Source of the DNA: a virus
Taxonomy: Duplodnaviria; Heunggongvirae; Uroviricota; Caudoviricetes
Reading direction: 5' to 3' (one strand)
DNA length: 39,588 nucleotides
Virus record (IMG/VR): IMGVR_UViG_2534681990_000031
Below the pieces are notes generated by a model. The model was not told the origin of the DNA. It did not search any database and saw only the letters and a program-made list of their open reading frames with translations. Position 1 is the stretch's first letter; every line of letters begins with the position of its first letter. Position numbers and translations under genes: made by a program. Of this stretch, positions 1 to 30,871 are shown one piece after another.

Positions 1-1554
1 TTATTTCAGATTCTTTCTAATTATTTTCCCCGAGCAATTACGTGGCAGATCTTTTCTGATCTCCAGATAAGAGGGCACTTTAAATTTCGCCATATTTTGT
101 TCGCAGAAGCGGAAAAATTCCTCTTCGCTCAATGTTTCACCTTCATTCAGCACCACAAATGCTTTGATGGCTTCATCGCGAATCGAATCTTTAATACCCA
201 CAACCACGATATCCTGAATTTTTGGATGGGTGGCGATGATATTTTCCAGCTCCACGCAGGAGACATTCTCGCCACCGCGTTTGATCATATTGCAGCGGCG
301 ATCGACGAAATAAAAAAAGCCCTCTTCGTCGCAGTATCCGGTATCGCCGGTATGTAGCCAGCCGTCGGCTTCCAGCACTTTCGCAGTGGCTTTCGGGTTG
401 AGAAAATACTCTTTGAAGATGGTTTTCCCTGGTACGCCTTTAATACAGATTTCACCGATCTCACCTGCCGGGAGCGGGCGATTGTGATCGTCGCGGATCT
501 CCGCTTCGTAGCAAAACCCCGCCCGACCAATCGACGGCCAGCGTCGTTTATCGCCAGGGCGATCGCCGATAATGCCCACAATGGTTTCCGTCATCCCATA
601 AGACGTCAGCAAGCGAACGCCGAAGCGTTCACAAAACGCATCTTTTTCCTGCTCCGACAAGTTGAGATAAAACATCACTTCCCGCAGGCGGTGTTGCCGA
701 TCGTTCGCTGAAGGCGGCTGCACCATCAACGTACGGATCATCATCGGAATACATTCGGTAATGGTGGCGCGGTACTTCTGCACCTGTCCCCAGAAGGCGC
801 GGGCGCTGTATTTCTCGACCAGCACAAAGGTGGCCCCGGCAGAAAACGCCGCCATCGCCGCAGTACACTGGCAATCGATATGAAACGCAGGCATTACCGT
901 CAGGTAGACGTCATCGTCACGCAGTGCACACTGCCAGGCGGAGTAATATCCAGCGAAGCGCAGGTTGTAATGGGTAATCACCACACCTTTCGGTCGGGAG
1001 GTGGTGCCGGAGGTGAAGAGAATTTCCGCCGTATCGTCAGTCAATAGCGGCGGTGCATAGCACAAGGTGGCAGGTTGTTGATTTTTCAGTTGAGTAAACG
1101 AACTCACGCCATCATCAGCGGGAAGTGCCACATCTGTCAGGCAAATGTGCCGCAATTGAGTGGCATCTTCCTGCTGAATCTGTTGATACATAGGATAGAA
1201 TTGCGCACTGGTCACCAGCAGGCACGCCTGGCTATTTTGCAGGATCCACGCGCTTTCCTCGCGTAACAGGCGGGCGTTAATCGGCACCATAATCGCGCCA
1301 ATTTTTGCCAGCCCGAACCAGCAAAAGATAAATTCCGGGCAGTTGTCGAGATGTAGTGCAACCTTGTCGCCTTTGCGAATCCCCAGCGTATAAAACAGGT
1401 TTGCCGTGCGGTTAATCTCCTGATTTAACTCAAGATAACTATACCGGTTAACGACTCCGCCGCTGGATTCACAAATCAGCGCCGTTTTATGACCGTAAAC
1501 GTCCGCCAGATCGTCCCACATTTGACGTAGATGTTGTCCGCCAATGATATCCAT
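1..1554 (-). CDS. caiC: crotonobetaine/carnitine-CoA ligase CaiC (host gene)
   Basis: Track ORF 1..1725(-); protein from [29 protein letters not shown] matches recalled E. coli CaiC; adenylate-forming motifs [10 protein letters not shown] and YGMTE; stop codon at window bases 1-3; in-frame ATG at 1569 (MDRGAM) is an alternative start. Confidence 0.9.
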
Positions 1555-1599
1555 TGCACCTCTATCCATTTTTGTTCGTTTGTTATTGGTATAGCGCGG

Positions 1600-1680
1600 C
1601 GATTTTTTTGATACCGATTTGCATTTCATTTGATACCGCTGAAAAACGCCGATACGCAACTTATTTGATACTAAATCGGC
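1600..1680. repeat. three direct TTTGATAC(C/T) repeats at phage right end, candidate transposase binding sites
   Basis: TTTGATACC near 1607 and 1629, TTTGATACT near 1664 (22 and 35 bp spacing); adjacent GAAAAACGC resembles the recalled Mu attR site core. Confidence 0.4.
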
Positions 1681-1717
1681 GCTTTTCTTTTGAGTTTTAG
1701 AATGAGTTTTTAAGCGC

Positions 1718-2455
1718 TCATTCACTCTCTTTCAAACCAGTTTTAACTGTTTGTGGTTTTGGGTAAGGCTGGACTTTGAATAGCTTTGTGTTGAGGCGTT
1801 TTCTGGCCCTCTTGTTCAGAAACCGGATGTAACGAAACTGTCGGAACTTATGCACACTGGCTCTGTCGATATTAGCCCTCAGATGTTCACCTCGTTGTCC
1901 GCCTCGTTTAATGGCATTCCTGCAAATCTCGTGATACCACTCGCCATCAAGTTCATAGAATGTTGATTCATGGCTGCCTACATAATCAAAATTGCTTGCC
2001 TGATACACGACACCAAGACAGCCACAACGCTCATCTGCAAACGACTGAACCCACTGTACCTGCGGATAAAGCTGCCTGATTAGCTTGAGCGCGTAACTGA
2101 TTGCCCTTGATTCGGAGTTTCTCGGCATACAGTCATGCATCCATAGCCGGTTAAGCTCCATATATTCTCGGTTCTGCGTACCCGTTACGACGCGTGCACC
2201 ACTGTTTGGGTTAAGGGCGTAACCCCATTGCATTACGCCAACAAGTTCCCGTTCTGAAAATATACCCAGATGAAGGTAGGAATTATTTACGAAACGGTGG
2301 CTGTAATGTTTATTGACGATAACCAGTCTGGCCAGCCAGCAACTTATTGTCTCAACCCGCAACTCACGGGAGCCATAACCAACGATATTGTCGTTATAGC
2401 GAATAAGTTCAGGCGTGCTGATGATACGGGATGTGACTTGCTTTCTGTTCCCCAC
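1718..2455 (-). CDS. mom: Mom-like DNA modification protein (anti-restriction adenine modification)
   Basis: Track ORF 245 aa; last gene before the phage right end; overlaps the 3' end of a Com-like zinc-finger ORF as in Mu; listed first codon is GTG so true start uncertain. Confidence 0.7.
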
Positions 2456-2609
2456 GACAGGATTTCCTTGTGTATGTGGGGTGCTCTGTGGCGCTCGGAG
2501 ATGTGATTTGATTGAGGGTTTTACTGCGCGGACATTTTACTTCCAGATAACTGAAACTGGCCCGTGCCAGTAGCTTATTGCAGTGTCGGCACCGTATGTT
2601 TCGATACAT
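2409..2609 (-). CDS. com: Com-like zinc-finger translational activator of mom
   Basis: Internal Met of track ORF 2409..2654 gives [30 protein letters not shown], resembling recalled Mu Com (IRCKNCNKLL...RCPRCK); overlaps mom start by ~47 bp. Confidence 0.65.
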
Positions 2610-2649
2610 GACCGCATAACCTCCTGCTTTGTTGTTGATGCCTTTCTCA

Positions 2650-2680
2650 TGCAATCGATCGACAAAAACGATCGATTCGA
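2650..2680 (-). promoter_or_regulatory. GATC/TCGATCGA cluster upstream of com-mom, candidate Dam-sensitive regulatory region
   Basis: Two GATC sites ~13 bp apart (about 2657 and 2670) within palindromic TCGATCGA/CGATCGAT about 50 bp upstream of com start; Mu mom promoter is regulated through clustered GATC sites. Confidence 0.4.
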
Positions 2681-2723
2681 TTTGTTTAATTGATACAACA
2701 AATAGATTGAAAAGTCATCAACA

Positions 2724-3188
2724 ATGATTCAGGGAGGTGATTATTTACTTAAAGAAAACGAAGAGTTAGGTGGTGAAAACGATCATAAAATGATCATTTT
2801 ATTGACTTTTTATACAGTGAAGGTAGGATCACGCGTACATGTAGTATGTTTCAAATCAACAGGATACTACATAAAAGTGAAACCCAGCATAGCTGGAACT
2901 ATGCTGGGTCAATCTGTAAAAACTTGCATCAATGCTTTACTTCGAGCTCGTGGCGTATCCTATGATATTCCCCGGTCTCCTGTAAAGCAGAGATGCATAA
3001 AAAGGAGATCTTTATCATGGATGAAAGAGCCTGTTTGCCCTGCCTGTAAGACTCCCTTACAGCTCATCTATCGCCGTTCTCGATCTCAAAATGGCAAGAC
3101 ATACAAACCCAAAAATGCTTCCTGTTTCAGGATGCTGATATGTCCTGCCTGTTCTCCCAGGAGGGAAAATACACAAAACGTGCATTAA
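2724..3188 (+). CDS. hypothetical Cys-rich protein; likely real product is the C-terminal ~55 aa (CPAC...CPAC) from an internal Met near 3021
   Basis: Track ORF 154 aa; C-terminal MKEPVCPACKTPLQ...CFRMLICPACS with AAGGAG-like RBS upstream of the internal ATG; convergent with minus-strand genes across a shared hairpin; N-terminal two thirds look non-protein-like. Confidence 0.25.
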   Translation: MIQGGDYLLKENEELGGENDHKMIILLTFYTVKVGSRVHVVCFKSTGYYIKVKPSIAGTMLGQSVKTCINALLRARGVSYDIPRSPVKQRCIKRRSLSWMKEPVCPACKTPLQLIYRRSRSQNGKTYKPKNASCFRMLICPACSPRRENTQNVH

Positions 3189-3197
3189 CAAATTCAC

Positions 3198-3217
3198 CCG
3201 GCAGGGAAACCTGCCGG
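3198..3217. terminator. perfect 8-bp stem / GAAA loop hairpin between convergent ORFs, candidate bidirectional terminator
   Basis: CCGGCAGG-GAAA-CCTGCCGG; ~10 bp downstream of plus ORF stop (3188) and minus ORF stop (3227); T-rich flank on both sides is only moderate. Confidence 0.45.
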
Positions 3218-3226
3218 TCGGTATTG

Positions 3227-3472
3227 TTACATCATAGTACCGTCAGTTCCGGGCTGAACCGGCTCTGGTTGCTCTACGGGTTGAGGATCATTTTCCGTGC
3301 TGTTTTCAGCCGGAGAACGGCCAACCATTCGGGCCAGCACTTCATCAACATATGCGTCGATTTGTGCCTCAAAATCCTTGCGAACCTGCGCCTTCAGCAC
3401 GCGGTTCACTTCTTCAGAATAAAGTGCCTGTTTGACAAGCTCTTCAGTAACCGTGCCTTTAATCTCTGGCAT
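3227..3472 (-). CDS. hypothetical small charged protein (81 aa), cargo island
   Basis: Track ORF; AAAAGGAGAATATTC-ATG RBS; protein-like composition (MPEIKGTVTEELVKQALYSEEVNRVLKAQVRKDFEAQIDAYVDEVLARMV...). Confidence 0.5.
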   Translation of the reverse strand: MPEIKGTVTEELVKQALYSEEVNRVLKAQVRKDFEAQIDAYVDEVLARMVGRSPAENSTENDPQPVEQPEPVQPGTDGTMM

Positions 3473-3838: not shown

Positions 3839-5876
3839 ATTCTGTTACCGCTTTTTTCACTTCCACCACAATGCTGTCAATCAGCACCGGGTAAGTTGCA
3901 TTTTTTGTGATATCCGTTACGCGGAGTTTGTCCACCGGGAAAGTTCCTACTGGTGACTGCGTCAGGGTAAACGCGGCACCATCCTGACCATCAATAACCG
4001 GAATAACCTGAAGGCTGTTATTTCCTGCAAAACGGAAGGCCAGCGTATGCCATTCATTATCAAATGCACCAAAGGTTCCCAGTTTCTGGTTATTTGTTGC
4101 CACTTTTGCATTGTGGTACATCACATTCAGGTCTTTTGCGTCTGTCTGGATGTAGAACGATGCCAGCAGATTATTCCCTGCATCCCCTGTCAGGGTGACA
4201 CCCTGCGGCAGAGAGGAAACCGGCCAGTAAAGCCCCATGACATACTGGTTTGCCACCAGGTCGCCAGGTACTTTAAAACGACAACTGATTAAACCACCAT
4301 TTTTCAGCAGTTCAGCACCAGTACCGGCATCATGATCCAGATACCAAGATGATTTACCTGTTTCCTTGGTCAGTTTCATTGCCTTACCACCTGTGCCTCC
4401 TGCATCACTGATAATTTCAGCTTTACCGCCAGCCGGCTCCCAGCCCTGGGCTTTCAGATTTCCTTCTGACTCACTGACACGATAAGACAGCAGTGTTGTG
4501 GTTACTGCTTCAGTTTCTGAAGGTGACGGCACTGGTGCTTCAGTTTCAGAAGATGGAACATCGGCTTTTACTGTGGTTCGCCCCGCATGAGTCAGAACTG
4601 CCGTGGCCAGACGGTCGGAAATAATCCCACGACGTGCCCATGAACTGAAATGGCTGGCCCGGTCCGCAGATGTCCAGGTGGCGGCACTGTTACGCCACGT
4701 TGAGCCGTAATAACCAATGGATTCAATATCCGGGTCTTCTGCCGGATTGTTGGTGGGTACATTCGCGTCATTTTCATCTGTCATTAATGGAACGAAATGA
4801 ATGTTTTTATCTGTTTTGTTTTTGTAGCCGCCATAGATTGCCTGGTATGCCGGTTCATTTTTCTGTTTCCAGAAATACGTGGTATCGCCACAAATCCACG
4901 GAACGCCAGCAGCACTGCCACCGGTACACTGTTCCGCCTGTTCAGCCAGGTCTGCGCGGAATTTTTCCACCATCGCCAGAAACAGCGCGGAATGCTCCGT
5001 CGGCTTCGCATCAATATCAAACTCGCCCTGCATCCACACCACAGCAAGCAGGCGGTTTTTCGGGTTCTTCGCCAGTGCCGCTTTTGTCCGGCTGATTAAG
5101 TCCTTATACAGCGGCTTATCCACACCCCAGCGGGCTGAGTCCTCTGAAGCACCCGTGCTGTCACTGTACGTGCCGTCAGCACCCGCCGTGAATGCAGAAC
5201 CACCACGGCAGCAGGGAACCAGCAGAATCCCCGCATCTGCCGGAATAAACGGCAGCAGTTTTTTGGCAATGTGAAGCCCCTGACCCACGGTGCCATATTG
5301 CCCTTTAGCCACATCCGCTTTCGGGTGATTTTTTCCACTCATATCCTGCACATCATGCAGACAGTGGTCGGCCAGAATGATGTCGTTATACTGACAGGCT
5401 TTACCTCCCGGCGTGACTGTACTGCGACGGGCTAACTGCATAATACGCGGTTCGGGGCGGTCATATGTCTCCGGCAGTGGCAGACCTTCACCGTAAGCCA
5501 TACCGTTTGACTGACCAGCAAGAACCACCACGTAATACCAGGAAGGGGAGCTGGAAGCAGTTTCATTTCCTGACGGACGGGTATGTGTTTCAGCATTATC
5601 CCAGTCTGACGGTTCAGCAGTACCGGCAACATCAGCACTTAACGGAATGACCGCACCAATACCCGCTCCGGTAATTTCCACACTCGGATCACCGGATACT
5701 GGCCTTACCCACAGGCAATCCCGTGTATTAAAACTGATGAGACAGTCAGCAAATGTCATTCCTCCTTTTGTTTCGGCCGGAGGAAAGGGAGCCTCAAGAA
5801 ATGCCGCTGTACCACCGGAAACTTTAACAGTAAAGTTTCCGGGCATTGATGATAGTTGAACCCATTTGGACGTCAT
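3837..5876 (-). CDS. putative sialate O-acetylesterase-type SGNH/SASA hydrolase with C-terminal beta-rich (lectin-like) domain; NanS-p-like prophage cargo
   Basis: Track ORF 679 aa; VVVLAGQSNGMAYGEG (GQSN block I) and LLAVVWMQGEFD motifs typical of the SASA esterase family; S/T/P-rich linker PSSETEAPVPSPSETEA; sits between gin and com where Mu has no gene. Confidence 0.6.
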   Translation of the reverse strand: MTSKWVQLSSMPGNFTVKVSGGTAAFLEAPFPPAETKGGMTFADCLISFNTRDCLWVRPVSGDPSVEITGAGIGAVIPLSADVAGTAEPSDWDNAETHTRPSGNETASSSPSWYYVVVLAGQSNGMAYGEGLPLPETYDRPEPRIMQLARRSTVTPGGKACQYNDIILADHCLHDVQDMSGKNHPKADVAKGQYGTVGQGLHIAKKLLPFIPADAGILLVPCCRGGSAFTAGADGTYSDSTGASEDSARWGVDKPLYKDLISRTKAALAKNPKNRLLAVVWMQGEFDIDAKPTEHSALFLAMVEKFRADLAEQAEQCTGGSAAGVPWICGDTTYFWKQKNEPAYQAIYGGYKNKTDKNIHFVPLMTDENDANVPTNNPAEDPDIESIGYYGSTWRNSAATWTSADRASHFSSWARRGIISDRLATAVLTHAGRTTVKADVPSSETEAPVPSPSETEAVTTTLLSYRVSESEGNLKAQGWEPAGGKAEIISDAGGTGGKAMKLTKETGKSSWYLDHDAGTGAELLKNGGLISCRFKVPGDLVANQYVMGLYWPVSSLPQGVTLTGDAGNNLLASFYIQTDAKDLNVMYHNAKVATNNQKLGTFGAFDNEWHTLAFRFAGNNSLQVIPVIDGQDGAAFTLTQSPVGTFPVDKLRVTDITKNATYPVLIDSIVVEVKKAVTE

Positions 5877-29866: not shown

Positions 29867-30292
29867 TCAGAAAAGTGGCGGTTGTGTTCTTGCCAGATGC
29901 AGACGGCGCTGTTCACGTATGACGGTATAAATCTGGGTTTCTGACATCCGGTAATGGCGGCGAAGGGATTCAATTTTCTCGCCCCGGTCCCAGCGCGAAA
30001 ATATCTCATTGTTTCGCAGCTCGGCAAAGAGAGATTCCCCGACCGGCAGGTAATAACCCCGTCCGCCCATATAGGCTGCCTGAGCCGCAGCCACCTTGCG
30101 TGCCAGTTTGCCGGCCAGTACCGGCTCAATCCCCTGACGCTGAAGTTCTGCGCCGGTGACTTCAACCAGTTCTGACAGGGTCCGCGGCCAGTTCTTTTTG
30201 AGAACATCATCAGGGATGTCATCAAGGCGGTCGATAAGGGCGTGCAGTTGCTCACTGTCACCACCAAACATGCTCATCTGAGTTTCTGCCAT
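29867..30292 (-). CDS. Mor/C-family transcriptional activator
   Basis: 141 aa; C-terminal HTH ...RRHYRMSETQIYTVIREQRR resembles recalled Mu Mor C-terminus; only family member in window. Confidence 0.8.
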   Translation of the reverse strand: MAETQMSMFGGDSEQLHALIDRLDDIPDDVLKKNWPRTLSELVEVTGAELQRQGIEPVLAGKLARKVAAAQAAYMGGRGYYLPVGESLFAELRNNEIFSRWDRGEKIESLRRHYRMSETQIYTVIREQRRLHLARTQPPLF

Positions 30293-30320
30293 ATCAGCCT
30301 CCGGTTCTCGCGTTCCCGGT

Positions 30321-30355
30321 AAGTTTAAAATAAAAATCCCGCGTTGTGGCGGGAT
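30321..30355 (-). terminator. rho-independent terminator after gemA (stem ATCCCGC/GCGGGAT then TTTTATTTT on minus strand)
   Basis: 7-bp GC-rich stem, 6-nt loop, U-run on the coding (minus) strand 7 bp after gemA stop. Confidence 0.55.
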
Positions 30356-30361
30356 TTGGGG

Positions 30362-30871
30362 TTAACGGGGAAGTGATTTTTCATACTGCCTGCAAACGGC
30401 GTCATACCCCATCAGCGTGCGTTCGGGCATTCCCATCGCGGCCAGCATTTTGCGGCGGTGCCATCGCTTGAGACGCTCCAGCACATCTGAGGCCAGGGCG
30501 GGGTGTTGCTCCAGCCACTGCCAGTTTGCCACACCTTCGCCGCCGTTTTGCGCGGCCGTCTGCGATTTCACCCAGCGGTTAAGGGCGGTTTCCGCACCAT
30601 CAGAGATAAAGCCCTGCCGGTGCATCACCTTCCAGATGGCGCGAATTTTAGCGGTCACCGTACCCGGTTTTAAGGCCCGGTTAACCGGGTTCTGACGCAC
30701 TTTAAAACCGCGTTTTTTGAAAACATCCAGCACGCGGGATAACTCATCCGGTGACATATCCCGGCAGCTGGTTTTGCCGGTGACCGCCAGTAGTACGGAT
30801 GTGTAGGTTTCATCATCCAGGGCAAGCTCGCGTTTTGCCACATGAATGGCAGATATCAGTTTCCCTCTCAT
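30362..30871 (-). CDS. gemA: GemA-like protein (Mu gp16 family)
   Basis: 169 aa; MRGKLISAIHVAKRELALDDETYTSVLLAVTGKTSCRDMSPDEL matches recalled gp16/GemA N-terminal signature; synteny next to mor. Confidence 0.75.
   Translation of the reverse strand: MRGKLISAIHVAKRELALDDETYTSVLLAVTGKTSCRDMSPDELSRVLDVFKKRGFKVRQNPVNRALKPGTVTAKIRAIWKVMHRQGFISDGAETALNRWVKSQTAAQNGGEGVANWQWLEQHPALASDVLERLKRWHRRKMLAAMGMPERTLMGYDAVCRQYEKSLPR

Follow-up and report, generated by a model that had tools for sequence, protein, structure and literature searches.

A com allele with serine at the fourth zinc-ligand position in the com–mom operon of a Mu-like Escherichia coli prophage

The com–mom operon of phage Mu is the closest described counterpart of the locus reported here. 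In Mu, translation of the mom mRNA depends essentially on Com, and Dam and OxyR govern the mom promoter (PMC3378877). A promoter of the Mu type is weak and depends on an activator of the Mor/C family, with the OxyR site upstream of it being formed by three clustered GATC sites. Com has been described as a CCCC module that recognizes CC(N2-3)GAG in a hairpin loop, and the same report, from which the motif and hairpin model used here are taken, has described a translation-inhibition structure (TIS) for Mu (PMC6483171). Another report states, citing Witkowski et al. 1995, that the zinc finger of Mu Com requires Cys6, Cys9, Cys26 and Cys29 (PMC3299994). That report also places com before DNA methyltransferases in FluMu, Pnm1 and B3, and com–mom modules in Mu-like prophages of E. 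coli O157 were noted there earlier (PMC3299994). Over-expression of Mom is lethal, and mom is an accessory gene (PMC7261163). In the scheme for the family, late transcription results in one com–mom mRNA in which the GUG start codon and the Shine-Dalgarno sequence of mom are locked in the TIS. Com, a CCCC zinc ribbon, binds the adjacent CC(N2-3)GAG hairpin, upon which the TIS opens and Mom is made. Mom, a GNAT-fold enzyme that depends on Gly-tRNA, then modifies adenines of the phage DNA to N6-carbamoylmethyl-adenine, resulting in protection from restriction.

A Mu-type com–mom module at a prophage end

The window, i.e., the whole stretch of 39,588 nucleotides that was analysed (IMG/VR record IMGVR_UViG_2534681990_000031), begins with 1.55 kb of E. 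coli caiC on the minus strand (1..about 1555). A Mu-like prophage follows from about 1589 rightwards, also on the minus strand, with the transposase genes at the far end. The caiC junction was matched end to end in one of 5,426 complete E. coli genomes, that of strain UTAK-8 (NZ_CP168991.1), and the prophage end sequence ...CGCGCTATAC is common to Mu_JNE082796. The prophage closes with com and mom, and the minus strand carries the complete module. The features of this part are as follows.

1589..1717, minus strand: non-coding right end of the Mu-like prophage; other prophage copies align only from about 1589
2455..1718, minus strand: mom, 245 aa, GTG start; GNAT-fold DNA adenine modification enzyme by homology (Pfam, PHROG)
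2609..2409, minus strand: com, 66 aa, ATG start; homologue of the Com zinc-ribbon translational activator (Pfam, PHROG, RefSeq)
2620..2625, minus strand: Shine-Dalgarno sequence AGGAGG of com, 10 nt before the ATG (direct reading)

Com matched the Pfam family Zn_ribbon_Com (PF10122) with 41.7 bits (E = 7.9e-11; curated cut-off, 22.9 bits) and the PHROG family 'gpCom control of modification' with an E-value of 9.6e-12. RefSeq calls the same 66-aa ORF (WP_001444515.1), and the start at 2654 given in the original prediction is an in-frame TTG upstream within the com ORF. The com gene overlaps mom by 47 nt, as in phage Mu and in relatives from Salmonella and Yersinia. The homology of the 245-aa protein to Mom, which had been proposed from the letters of the DNA, is strong: it matched the Pfam Mom family (PF25680) with 258.4 bits (E = 5.8e-77; curated cut-off, 27.1 bits) over the full model (1–202) and the PHROG family 'Mom-like DNA modification protein' with an E-value of 5.5e-84. 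The equivalents of Mu H58, Y59, R111, S124, D149, R151 and Y159, a list of active-site residues taken from PMC13219725, are conserved in all seven cases, and the HTH-like insertion (residues 175–209, approximately) aligns free of gaps. With Pfam and PHROG matches to both proteins and a position about 130 nt from the right end of the prophage, the Mu-type com–mom module anticipated at this place is confirmed, and by homology the operon is an ordinary, canonical Mu-type com–mom anti-restriction operon in an E. coli prophage.

Compared with Mu, Com is 43% and Mom 79% identical. Both systems have a GUG start buried in a CCCAC/GUGGG-type hairpin, an adjacent hairpin with CC(N3)GAG, a TCGATCG-N8-GATCGAT pair of Dam sites and a late activator of the Mor/C type. 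In contrast to Mu, the window has Ser instead of Cys as the fourth ligand, two GATC sites instead of three, a C·A mismatch in the Com-target stem, and a terminator-like hairpin with small ORFs upstream in place of the gin/G segment. The com–methyltransferase cassettes of Mu_JNE082796 and of Salmonella and Yersinia prophages are also alike in com, the TIS and the start GUG GGG AAC. In these cassettes, however, com is followed by a C5-cytosine or N6/N4 methyltransferase and not by mom, and Cys29 is kept.

Codon 29 of com and the state of the fourth cysteine

Com of the window reads MYRNIRC7RHC10...KC26PRS29K, and the residue that sets it apart is encoded as follows.

2525..2523, minus strand: codon 29 of com, AGT (Ser); aligns with the zinc ligand Cys29 of Mu Com; TGT or TGC in all relatives

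The second knuckle is CxxS, as had been read in the original prediction, with AGT standing in the Cys29 column of Mu Com. Functional Com has the four-Cys feature CxxC-N15/16-CxxC, whereas the window has Cys7, Cys10, Cys26 and Ser29; lacking the four-Cys site, the protein is filed as a variant allele. It belongs to the Com family as a derived, probably defective allele and is not classed as a genuine CCCC finger. The serine was also considered as a product of faulty sequencing or assembly, or of a wrongly read ORF, and this was rejected. Such an error is exceedingly improbable, since 24 complete genomes that were assembled independently of one another have the same AGT, the exact protein is present on at least about 1000 contigs, RefSeq calls the same 66-aa ORF, and the reading frame is fixed by the full-length alignment to Mu Com. 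A search of PDB sequences for a Com structure resulted in weak matches to eS27 zinc ribbons only, with E-values of 0.02 or worse.

Conservation of the fourth Cys was followed among close and diverse relatives. Besides Mu and two loci of E. coli, the 38 close relatives comprised 35 protein clusters whose members come from E. coli, Salmonella and Yersinia, and Cys29 was present in all 38 of these sequences in an alignment (A2) that otherwise held the window allele and its own fragment. In addition, an unindexed profile search over 1.84 billion cluster representatives resulted in 554 matches, the best 150 of which were inspected; the profile favours Cys, with a single column costing just a few bits. 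Among the best 150 of the 554 matches, 144 had CxxC...CxxC. The six exceptions included two N-terminal fragments, two sequences with a CxC first knuckle, one without the first Cys and one without the third, and none of these six, again among the best 150 of 554, lacked the fourth Cys. A scan of contigs with the peptide pattern EVKCPRCK is biased to Cys29 and was excluded from the conservation evidence. Other rare alleles with loss of a ligand exist (P0165 and P0172), as does a rare C26Y allele in E. coli (P0198, 3 contigs). Ligand-loss alleles thus arise occasionally, and C29S is the one that became common.

Complete genomes of E. coli also revealed the origin of the serine codon. The 301-nt com region was present in 232 of the 5,426 complete genomes. 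A 57-nt probe centred on codon 29 matched 209 records, 24 at 100% and 185 with one mismatch; in strain E2865 the mismatch is TGT (Cys), and most E. coli copies carry TGT. Ser29 differs from this majority allele by a single T>A transversion. The Cys29 alleles of E. coli (E2865 and 2012C-4502; WP_001310452.1 and WP_001443803.1) are 99.1–99.7% identical to the window in nucleotides over com–mom and share its regulatory region, RNA elements and mom. They differ in having TGT at codon 29, and are the canonical majority (185 of the 209 records of the 57-nt probe). These alleles belong to the same Mu-like prophage family and occur in Shiga-toxin-producing and other E. coli; they probably correspond to the Sp18 type to which PMC3299994 refers. 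The nearest Cys29 haplotype, that of strain 2012C-4502, differs from the window in three of 983 nt, namely in C29S, in a base located 2 nt ahead of the ATG of com, and in Mom N180S. One Com protein (P0188) is the same as Com of the window except for Cys29, with 98.5% identity (65 of 66 residues). A search with the reconstructed ancestor, i.e., com–mom of the window with TGT restored, gave no exact match; the exact 983-nt window haplotype was present in 20 records, and four more carried one extra change. Compared with P0188 and 2012C-4502, the Ser29 allele has no added Cys or His, and no compensatory change was found on the Ser29 haplotype. These comparisons show the Ser29 codon to be a derived state, reached by one nucleotide change on an allele that is canonical in other respects.

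The possibility that Ser29 Com is still a working activator, with Mom made perhaps at a lower level, is a rather unlikely one. The zinc ion would be coordinated by Cys7, Cys10 and Cys26 together with the hydroxyl of Ser29, a water molecule, or a pre-existing residue of the C-terminal tail (H43, C51, H59, H63 or H65); in another variant of this reading, the fold would survive without full zinc occupancy. Single Cys-to-Ser changes in Cys4 sites sometimes retain partial activity. Against a working protein stand the presence of only Cys at position 29 in the 38 close and 150 diverse relatives, the lack of any compensating substitution on the Ser29 allele, and the report that all four cysteines are required (PMC3299994). 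The alignment to Com family members for which the original prediction had called was made, and no alternative metal ligand was visible among the homologues; a replacement ligand was rejected, the conserved residues of the tail coinciding with RNA elements and the mom start. The designation 'unusual zinc finger' is not supported. A single derived change, the absence of compensation and a fourth Cys kept in all other relatives examined point to a point mutant of a CCCC finger that is most likely defective.

Elements controlling mom translation and com–mom transcription

Two RNA elements that would control the translation of mom were recognized within com and around the mom start.

2494..2481, minus strand: probable Com-binding hairpin GCGC-CACAGA-GCAC, within the com coding sequence; carries CC(N3)GAG
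2450..2481, minus strand: translation-inhibition structure (TIS); CCCCAC (2481..2476) pairs with GUGGGG (2455..2450) in predicted folds

The CC(N3)GAG motif of the hairpin, CCACAGAG, is located at 2491..2484. Across eight homologues ranging from E. coli to Acinetobacter, 90.6% of the cells of the 4-bp Com-target stem are paired, compared with 3–59% in slid controls, and two of the four pairs have changes on both sides (covariation). The second stem pair is a C·A mismatch in the window and in other enteric copies. The predicted TIS sequesters the GUG start of mom, with the mom Shine-Dalgarno sequence AAGGA (2469..2465) in the loop. The TIS was present in the minimum-free-energy and centroid folds, with modest folding z-scores (-0.7 to -1.5), and an equivalent CCCAC/GUGGG stem was predicted in Mu and in the homologue L007. 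A search of Rfam with positions 1600..3300 resulted in chance-level matches only.

These elements also bear on the tail of Com, which is otherwise disordered. The codons of its conserved residues, A-x-E-H-P-T and R-G-E, fall in the Com-target hairpin, in the arms of the TIS and at the start of mom. Conservation of the tail is explained at the RNA level and provides no evidence for a spare metal ligand; in addition, the tail has been reported as dispensable for RNA binding (PMC6483171), and both points argue against a Ser29 Com kept active by a tail residue. In the Ser29 module every predicted cis element, as well as mom, is intact. Decay of mom on the Ser29 haplotype was considered and rejected, as M106 is common to the Cys29 haplotypes and N180 matches Mu.

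The DNA upstream of com contains a pair of Dam sites, and further features are relevant to transcription.

2677..2653, no strand assigned: perfect inverted repeat of 9 bp, AATCGATCG-N7-CGATCGATT, which holds two Dam sites at a spacing of 13 bp
2881..2910, minus strand: terminator-like hairpin with a 13-bp stem and a T-run, which ends the upstream tail-fibre operon
29867..30292, minus strand: late transcriptional activator of the Mor/C family (Pfam Mor, 2.8e-32; PHROG 'late transcriptional activator', 3.1e-45)

The GATC sites are located at 2673..2670 and 2660..2657, i.e., 64 and 51 nt upstream of the com ATG. Two GATC sites in a palindrome had been proposed here; the two sites do lie in a perfect inverted repeat upstream of com, but only one arm is exactly TCGATCGA. 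The GATC-N9-GATC pair upstream of com is the only such pair in the 39.6-kb window, and as at least one was present in 31 of 100 shuffles, its occurrence is unremarkable alone. Mu, two prophages of Salmonella and one of Yersinia have TCGATCG-N8-GATCGAT at the corresponding place upstream of com, and a near-identical CGATCG-N8-GATCGAT is in the same position in Citrobacter. The sequence around the motif is otherwise diverged among the relatives, while the preceding ATCAATTAAA is also common to the window and Mu. The pair is a conserved counterpart of two of the three Dam sites of Mu (sites 2 and 3); the first GATC of Mu is absent in the window and present in the Yersinia relative.

GATC pairs 13 bp apart inside one OxyR half-site have been reported for gtr of P22 (PMC2909390). 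With the same spacing of 13 bases, both GATC sites of the window would fit one 15-bp OxyR half-site. Dam/OxyR operators with paired GATC sites are those of gtr of P22 and of agn43, and the GATC1/2 and GATC3/4 pairs of gtr (PMC2909390) are comparable to the window sequence ATCGTTTTTGTCGAT. The inverted repeat is a probable OxyR half-site or Dam-sensitive operator of the com–mom promoter, and control of the GATC pair by Dam and OxyR may reasonably be inferred from homology. The arrangement differs from that of Mu: the distance of the GATC pair to the ATG of com is 51 and 64 nt in the window versus 78 and 91 nt in Mu, and being about 27 nt nearer to com leaves no room for the Mu-like order of OxyR site, C site and promoter. 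In the relatives from Salmonella, Citrobacter and Yersinia, a -10-like TATACT or TATCAT occurs 6–7 nt after the second GATC, and in these relatives the operator may overlap with the core promoter.

The terminator-like hairpin (2910..2881) indicates that transcription of com–mom must start from a separate promoter, located between 2880 and 2610. A sigma-70 promoter scan of the minus strand from 2880 to 2610 recognized no com–mom promoter, and the absence of a sigma-70-like promoter fits dependence on an activator. Only one activator of the Mor/C family was found in the window. It is a candidate activator of the com–mom promoter and is located between gemA and the lysozyme gene, as is the C gene in Mu.

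Spread and probable effect of the serine allele

The Ser29 allele is present in 24 of the 209 E. coli complete-genome records, one copy of it being plasmid-borne. The insertions of its carrier prophage include the following.

UTAK-8: upstream of caiC
PA20 and 20R2R: in bcsA
SRCC 1675 and Wll001: next to an aga PTS gene
97-3250: in an epimerase pseudogene
SMN013SH2: next to a TerB-family gene

The identical 983-nt Ser29 haplotype occurs at at least five different insertion sites, and a clonal artefact (a single host lineage with a single insertion) was rejected on this basis. Several insertion sites also imply that the carrier phage inserted repeatedly after the mutation arose. The wide and repeated spread, together with a mom that is fully intact and undecayed, would fit a working Com equally well, for which the retention of all cis elements and the expectation that phage-level selection for anti-restriction would favour function likewise speak.

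The reading preferred here, which appears reasonably probable, is that the derived C29S com is a loss- or reduction-of-function allele and that mom is silent or strongly down-tuned. The change of TGT to AGT replaces the fourth ligand, Cys29, with Ser, and zinc binding would most likely be greatly weakened. Weaker zinc binding would be expected to weaken the folding of Com and its binding to RNA and to result in poor activation of mom, the translation of Mom being activated poorly or not at all and mom being silent or strongly down-tuned. The accessory nature of com and mom and the toxicity of Mom to the host may explain why the allele is tolerated; the allele travels with a phage lineage that is still active.

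It has also been considered that the Ser29 allele is defective in cis and is rescued in trans by the normal Com of a second Mu-like prophage. Two com-probe matches were present in 13 of the 24 Ser29 records, for example in 97-3250, where the second copy is annotated 'protein mom', and the RNA target is identical between the haplotypes. In the other 11 of the 24 records, including UTAK-8, PA20 and SRCC 1675, a single copy of this com is present, and rescue by a co-resident normal Com is thus not general; it also needs joint induction of both prophages. Taken together, rescue in trans appears quite improbable. Two further readings are doubtful, namely that a natural CCCS Com still folds, binds its RNA hairpin and activates mom, its sensitivity to zinc or to redox conditions perhaps being altered, or that the change is a positively selected off-switch of toxic mom. 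As an observation on the off-switch, the phage would be one that keeps spreading among Shiga-toxin-producing E. coli while its toxic anti-restriction gene is silenced.

The module itself follows the textbook picture of Mu, and RefSeq already lists the allele, without remark, under the name 'Com family'. Should Ser29 Com be dead, then in complete E. coli genomes roughly one in ten members of the prophage family would have a mom that is intact but cannot be translated, and the annotation 'Mom present' would over-predict the anti-restriction capacity. The phages would then move between O157, O26 and other lineages without Mom, and under the loss-of-function reading the spread of the allele would mean that Mom is not needed for phage movement among hosts. 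If, on the other hand, Ser29 Com works, it would offer a naturally occurring mutant with which to study how zinc is coordinated in a very small zinc ribbon that binds RNA and for which the PDB sequence search revealed no solved structure.

com as probable RNA target and leader of other modification genes

The com codons 37–53 (2500..2450) encode the only conserved residues of the disordered tail of Com, A-x-E-H-P-T and R-G-E. These codons coincide with the Com-target hairpin, with the arms of the translation-inhibition structure (TIS, the mRNA hairpin that buries the mom start) and with the mom start codon itself. The coding sequence of com probably also serves as the RNA target of Com. Genes other than mom were also found after a closely similar com. 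In E. coli and Salmonella the gene that takes the place of mom encodes a C5-cytosine methyltransferase; in Yersinia it encodes an N6/N4 methyltransferase. Mu_JNE082796 is a Mu-like phage that resides within an Stx2c phage; its com is 97% identical to that of the window but precedes a different downstream gene.

Loci with a non-mom gene after com, compared with window 2455..2445
L002, 3633..4840
L020, 2501..3710
L025, 2501..3194

The swap of the downstream gene starts directly past the common start GUG GGG AAC (window 2455..2445), so the Com-responsive leader behaves as a portable cassette. The principle of a portable com leader is already known from FluMu, Pnm1 and B3 (PMC3299994).

Loss of zinc ligands was also observed in other Com proteins. 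P0198, a Com family member present on three E. coli contigs, carries C26Y and has lost a single ligand, and the distant cluster representatives P0165 and P0172 have lost one each, the first or third Cys. Ligand-loss alleles of com, an accessory gene, recur.

Region upstream of com

The region between the tail genes and com contains a putative ORF on the opposite strand and further GATC sites.

Features upstream of com
2724..3188, plus strand, putative ORF of 154 aa
2781..2795, second close GATC pair, 11 bp apart (AATGATCATTTTATGATCG)
2827..2830, additional third GATC site, beyond this pair

The ORF matches phrog_26524, a PHROG of unknown function (2.2e-51), and its C-terminal end contains a zinc-ribbon-like segment (CPAC...CPAC) with a weak Trm112p-like match. 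The terminator-like hairpin at 2881..2910 falls within its span, and RefSeq annotates the ORF with a frameshift in strains 2012C-4502 and N8B7-2. The distance from these upstream GATC sites to com is 175–221 nt, and a sigma-70-like site (2802..2829, plus strand) overlaps this second GATC region. The sites are identical in the three further E. coli-type copies compared (E2865, 97-3250 and the Stx2c-inserted Mu-like phage), and no GATC was found at the equivalent positions in the Salmonella and Citrobacter relatives compared.

Prophage context and insertion at caiC

Phage Mu contains both mor and C, whereas a single Mor/C-family activator gene was found among the 10 ORFs scanned between gemA and the lysozyme gene of the window prophage (29867..30871).

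The com–mom haplotype with Ser29 in place of the ligand Cys29 also occurs on a plasmid record of E. coli SMN152SH1 (NZ_CP024617.1, 3631..4613; 88,896 bp), which implies that a Mu-like prophage, whole or partial, is inserted in this plasmid. A contig attributed to a Gram-positive organism (L006, NZ_JBQPOM010000071.1, labelled Vagococcus sp. WN89Y) has a com of enterobacterial type (62% identical), together with the same TIS and a GATCGAT motif. This record may represent contamination or a mislabelled assembly.

The window prophage lies within the carnitine (cai) operon, and its insertion point is some 35 bp upstream of where caiC starts (window 1555..1600; 3983..4147 in the compared locus L030). 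Of 5,426 complete E. coli genomes, just that of UTAK-8, a strain from veal, has the caiC–prophage junction, so the insertion looks recent. The insertion is probably polar on caiCDE.
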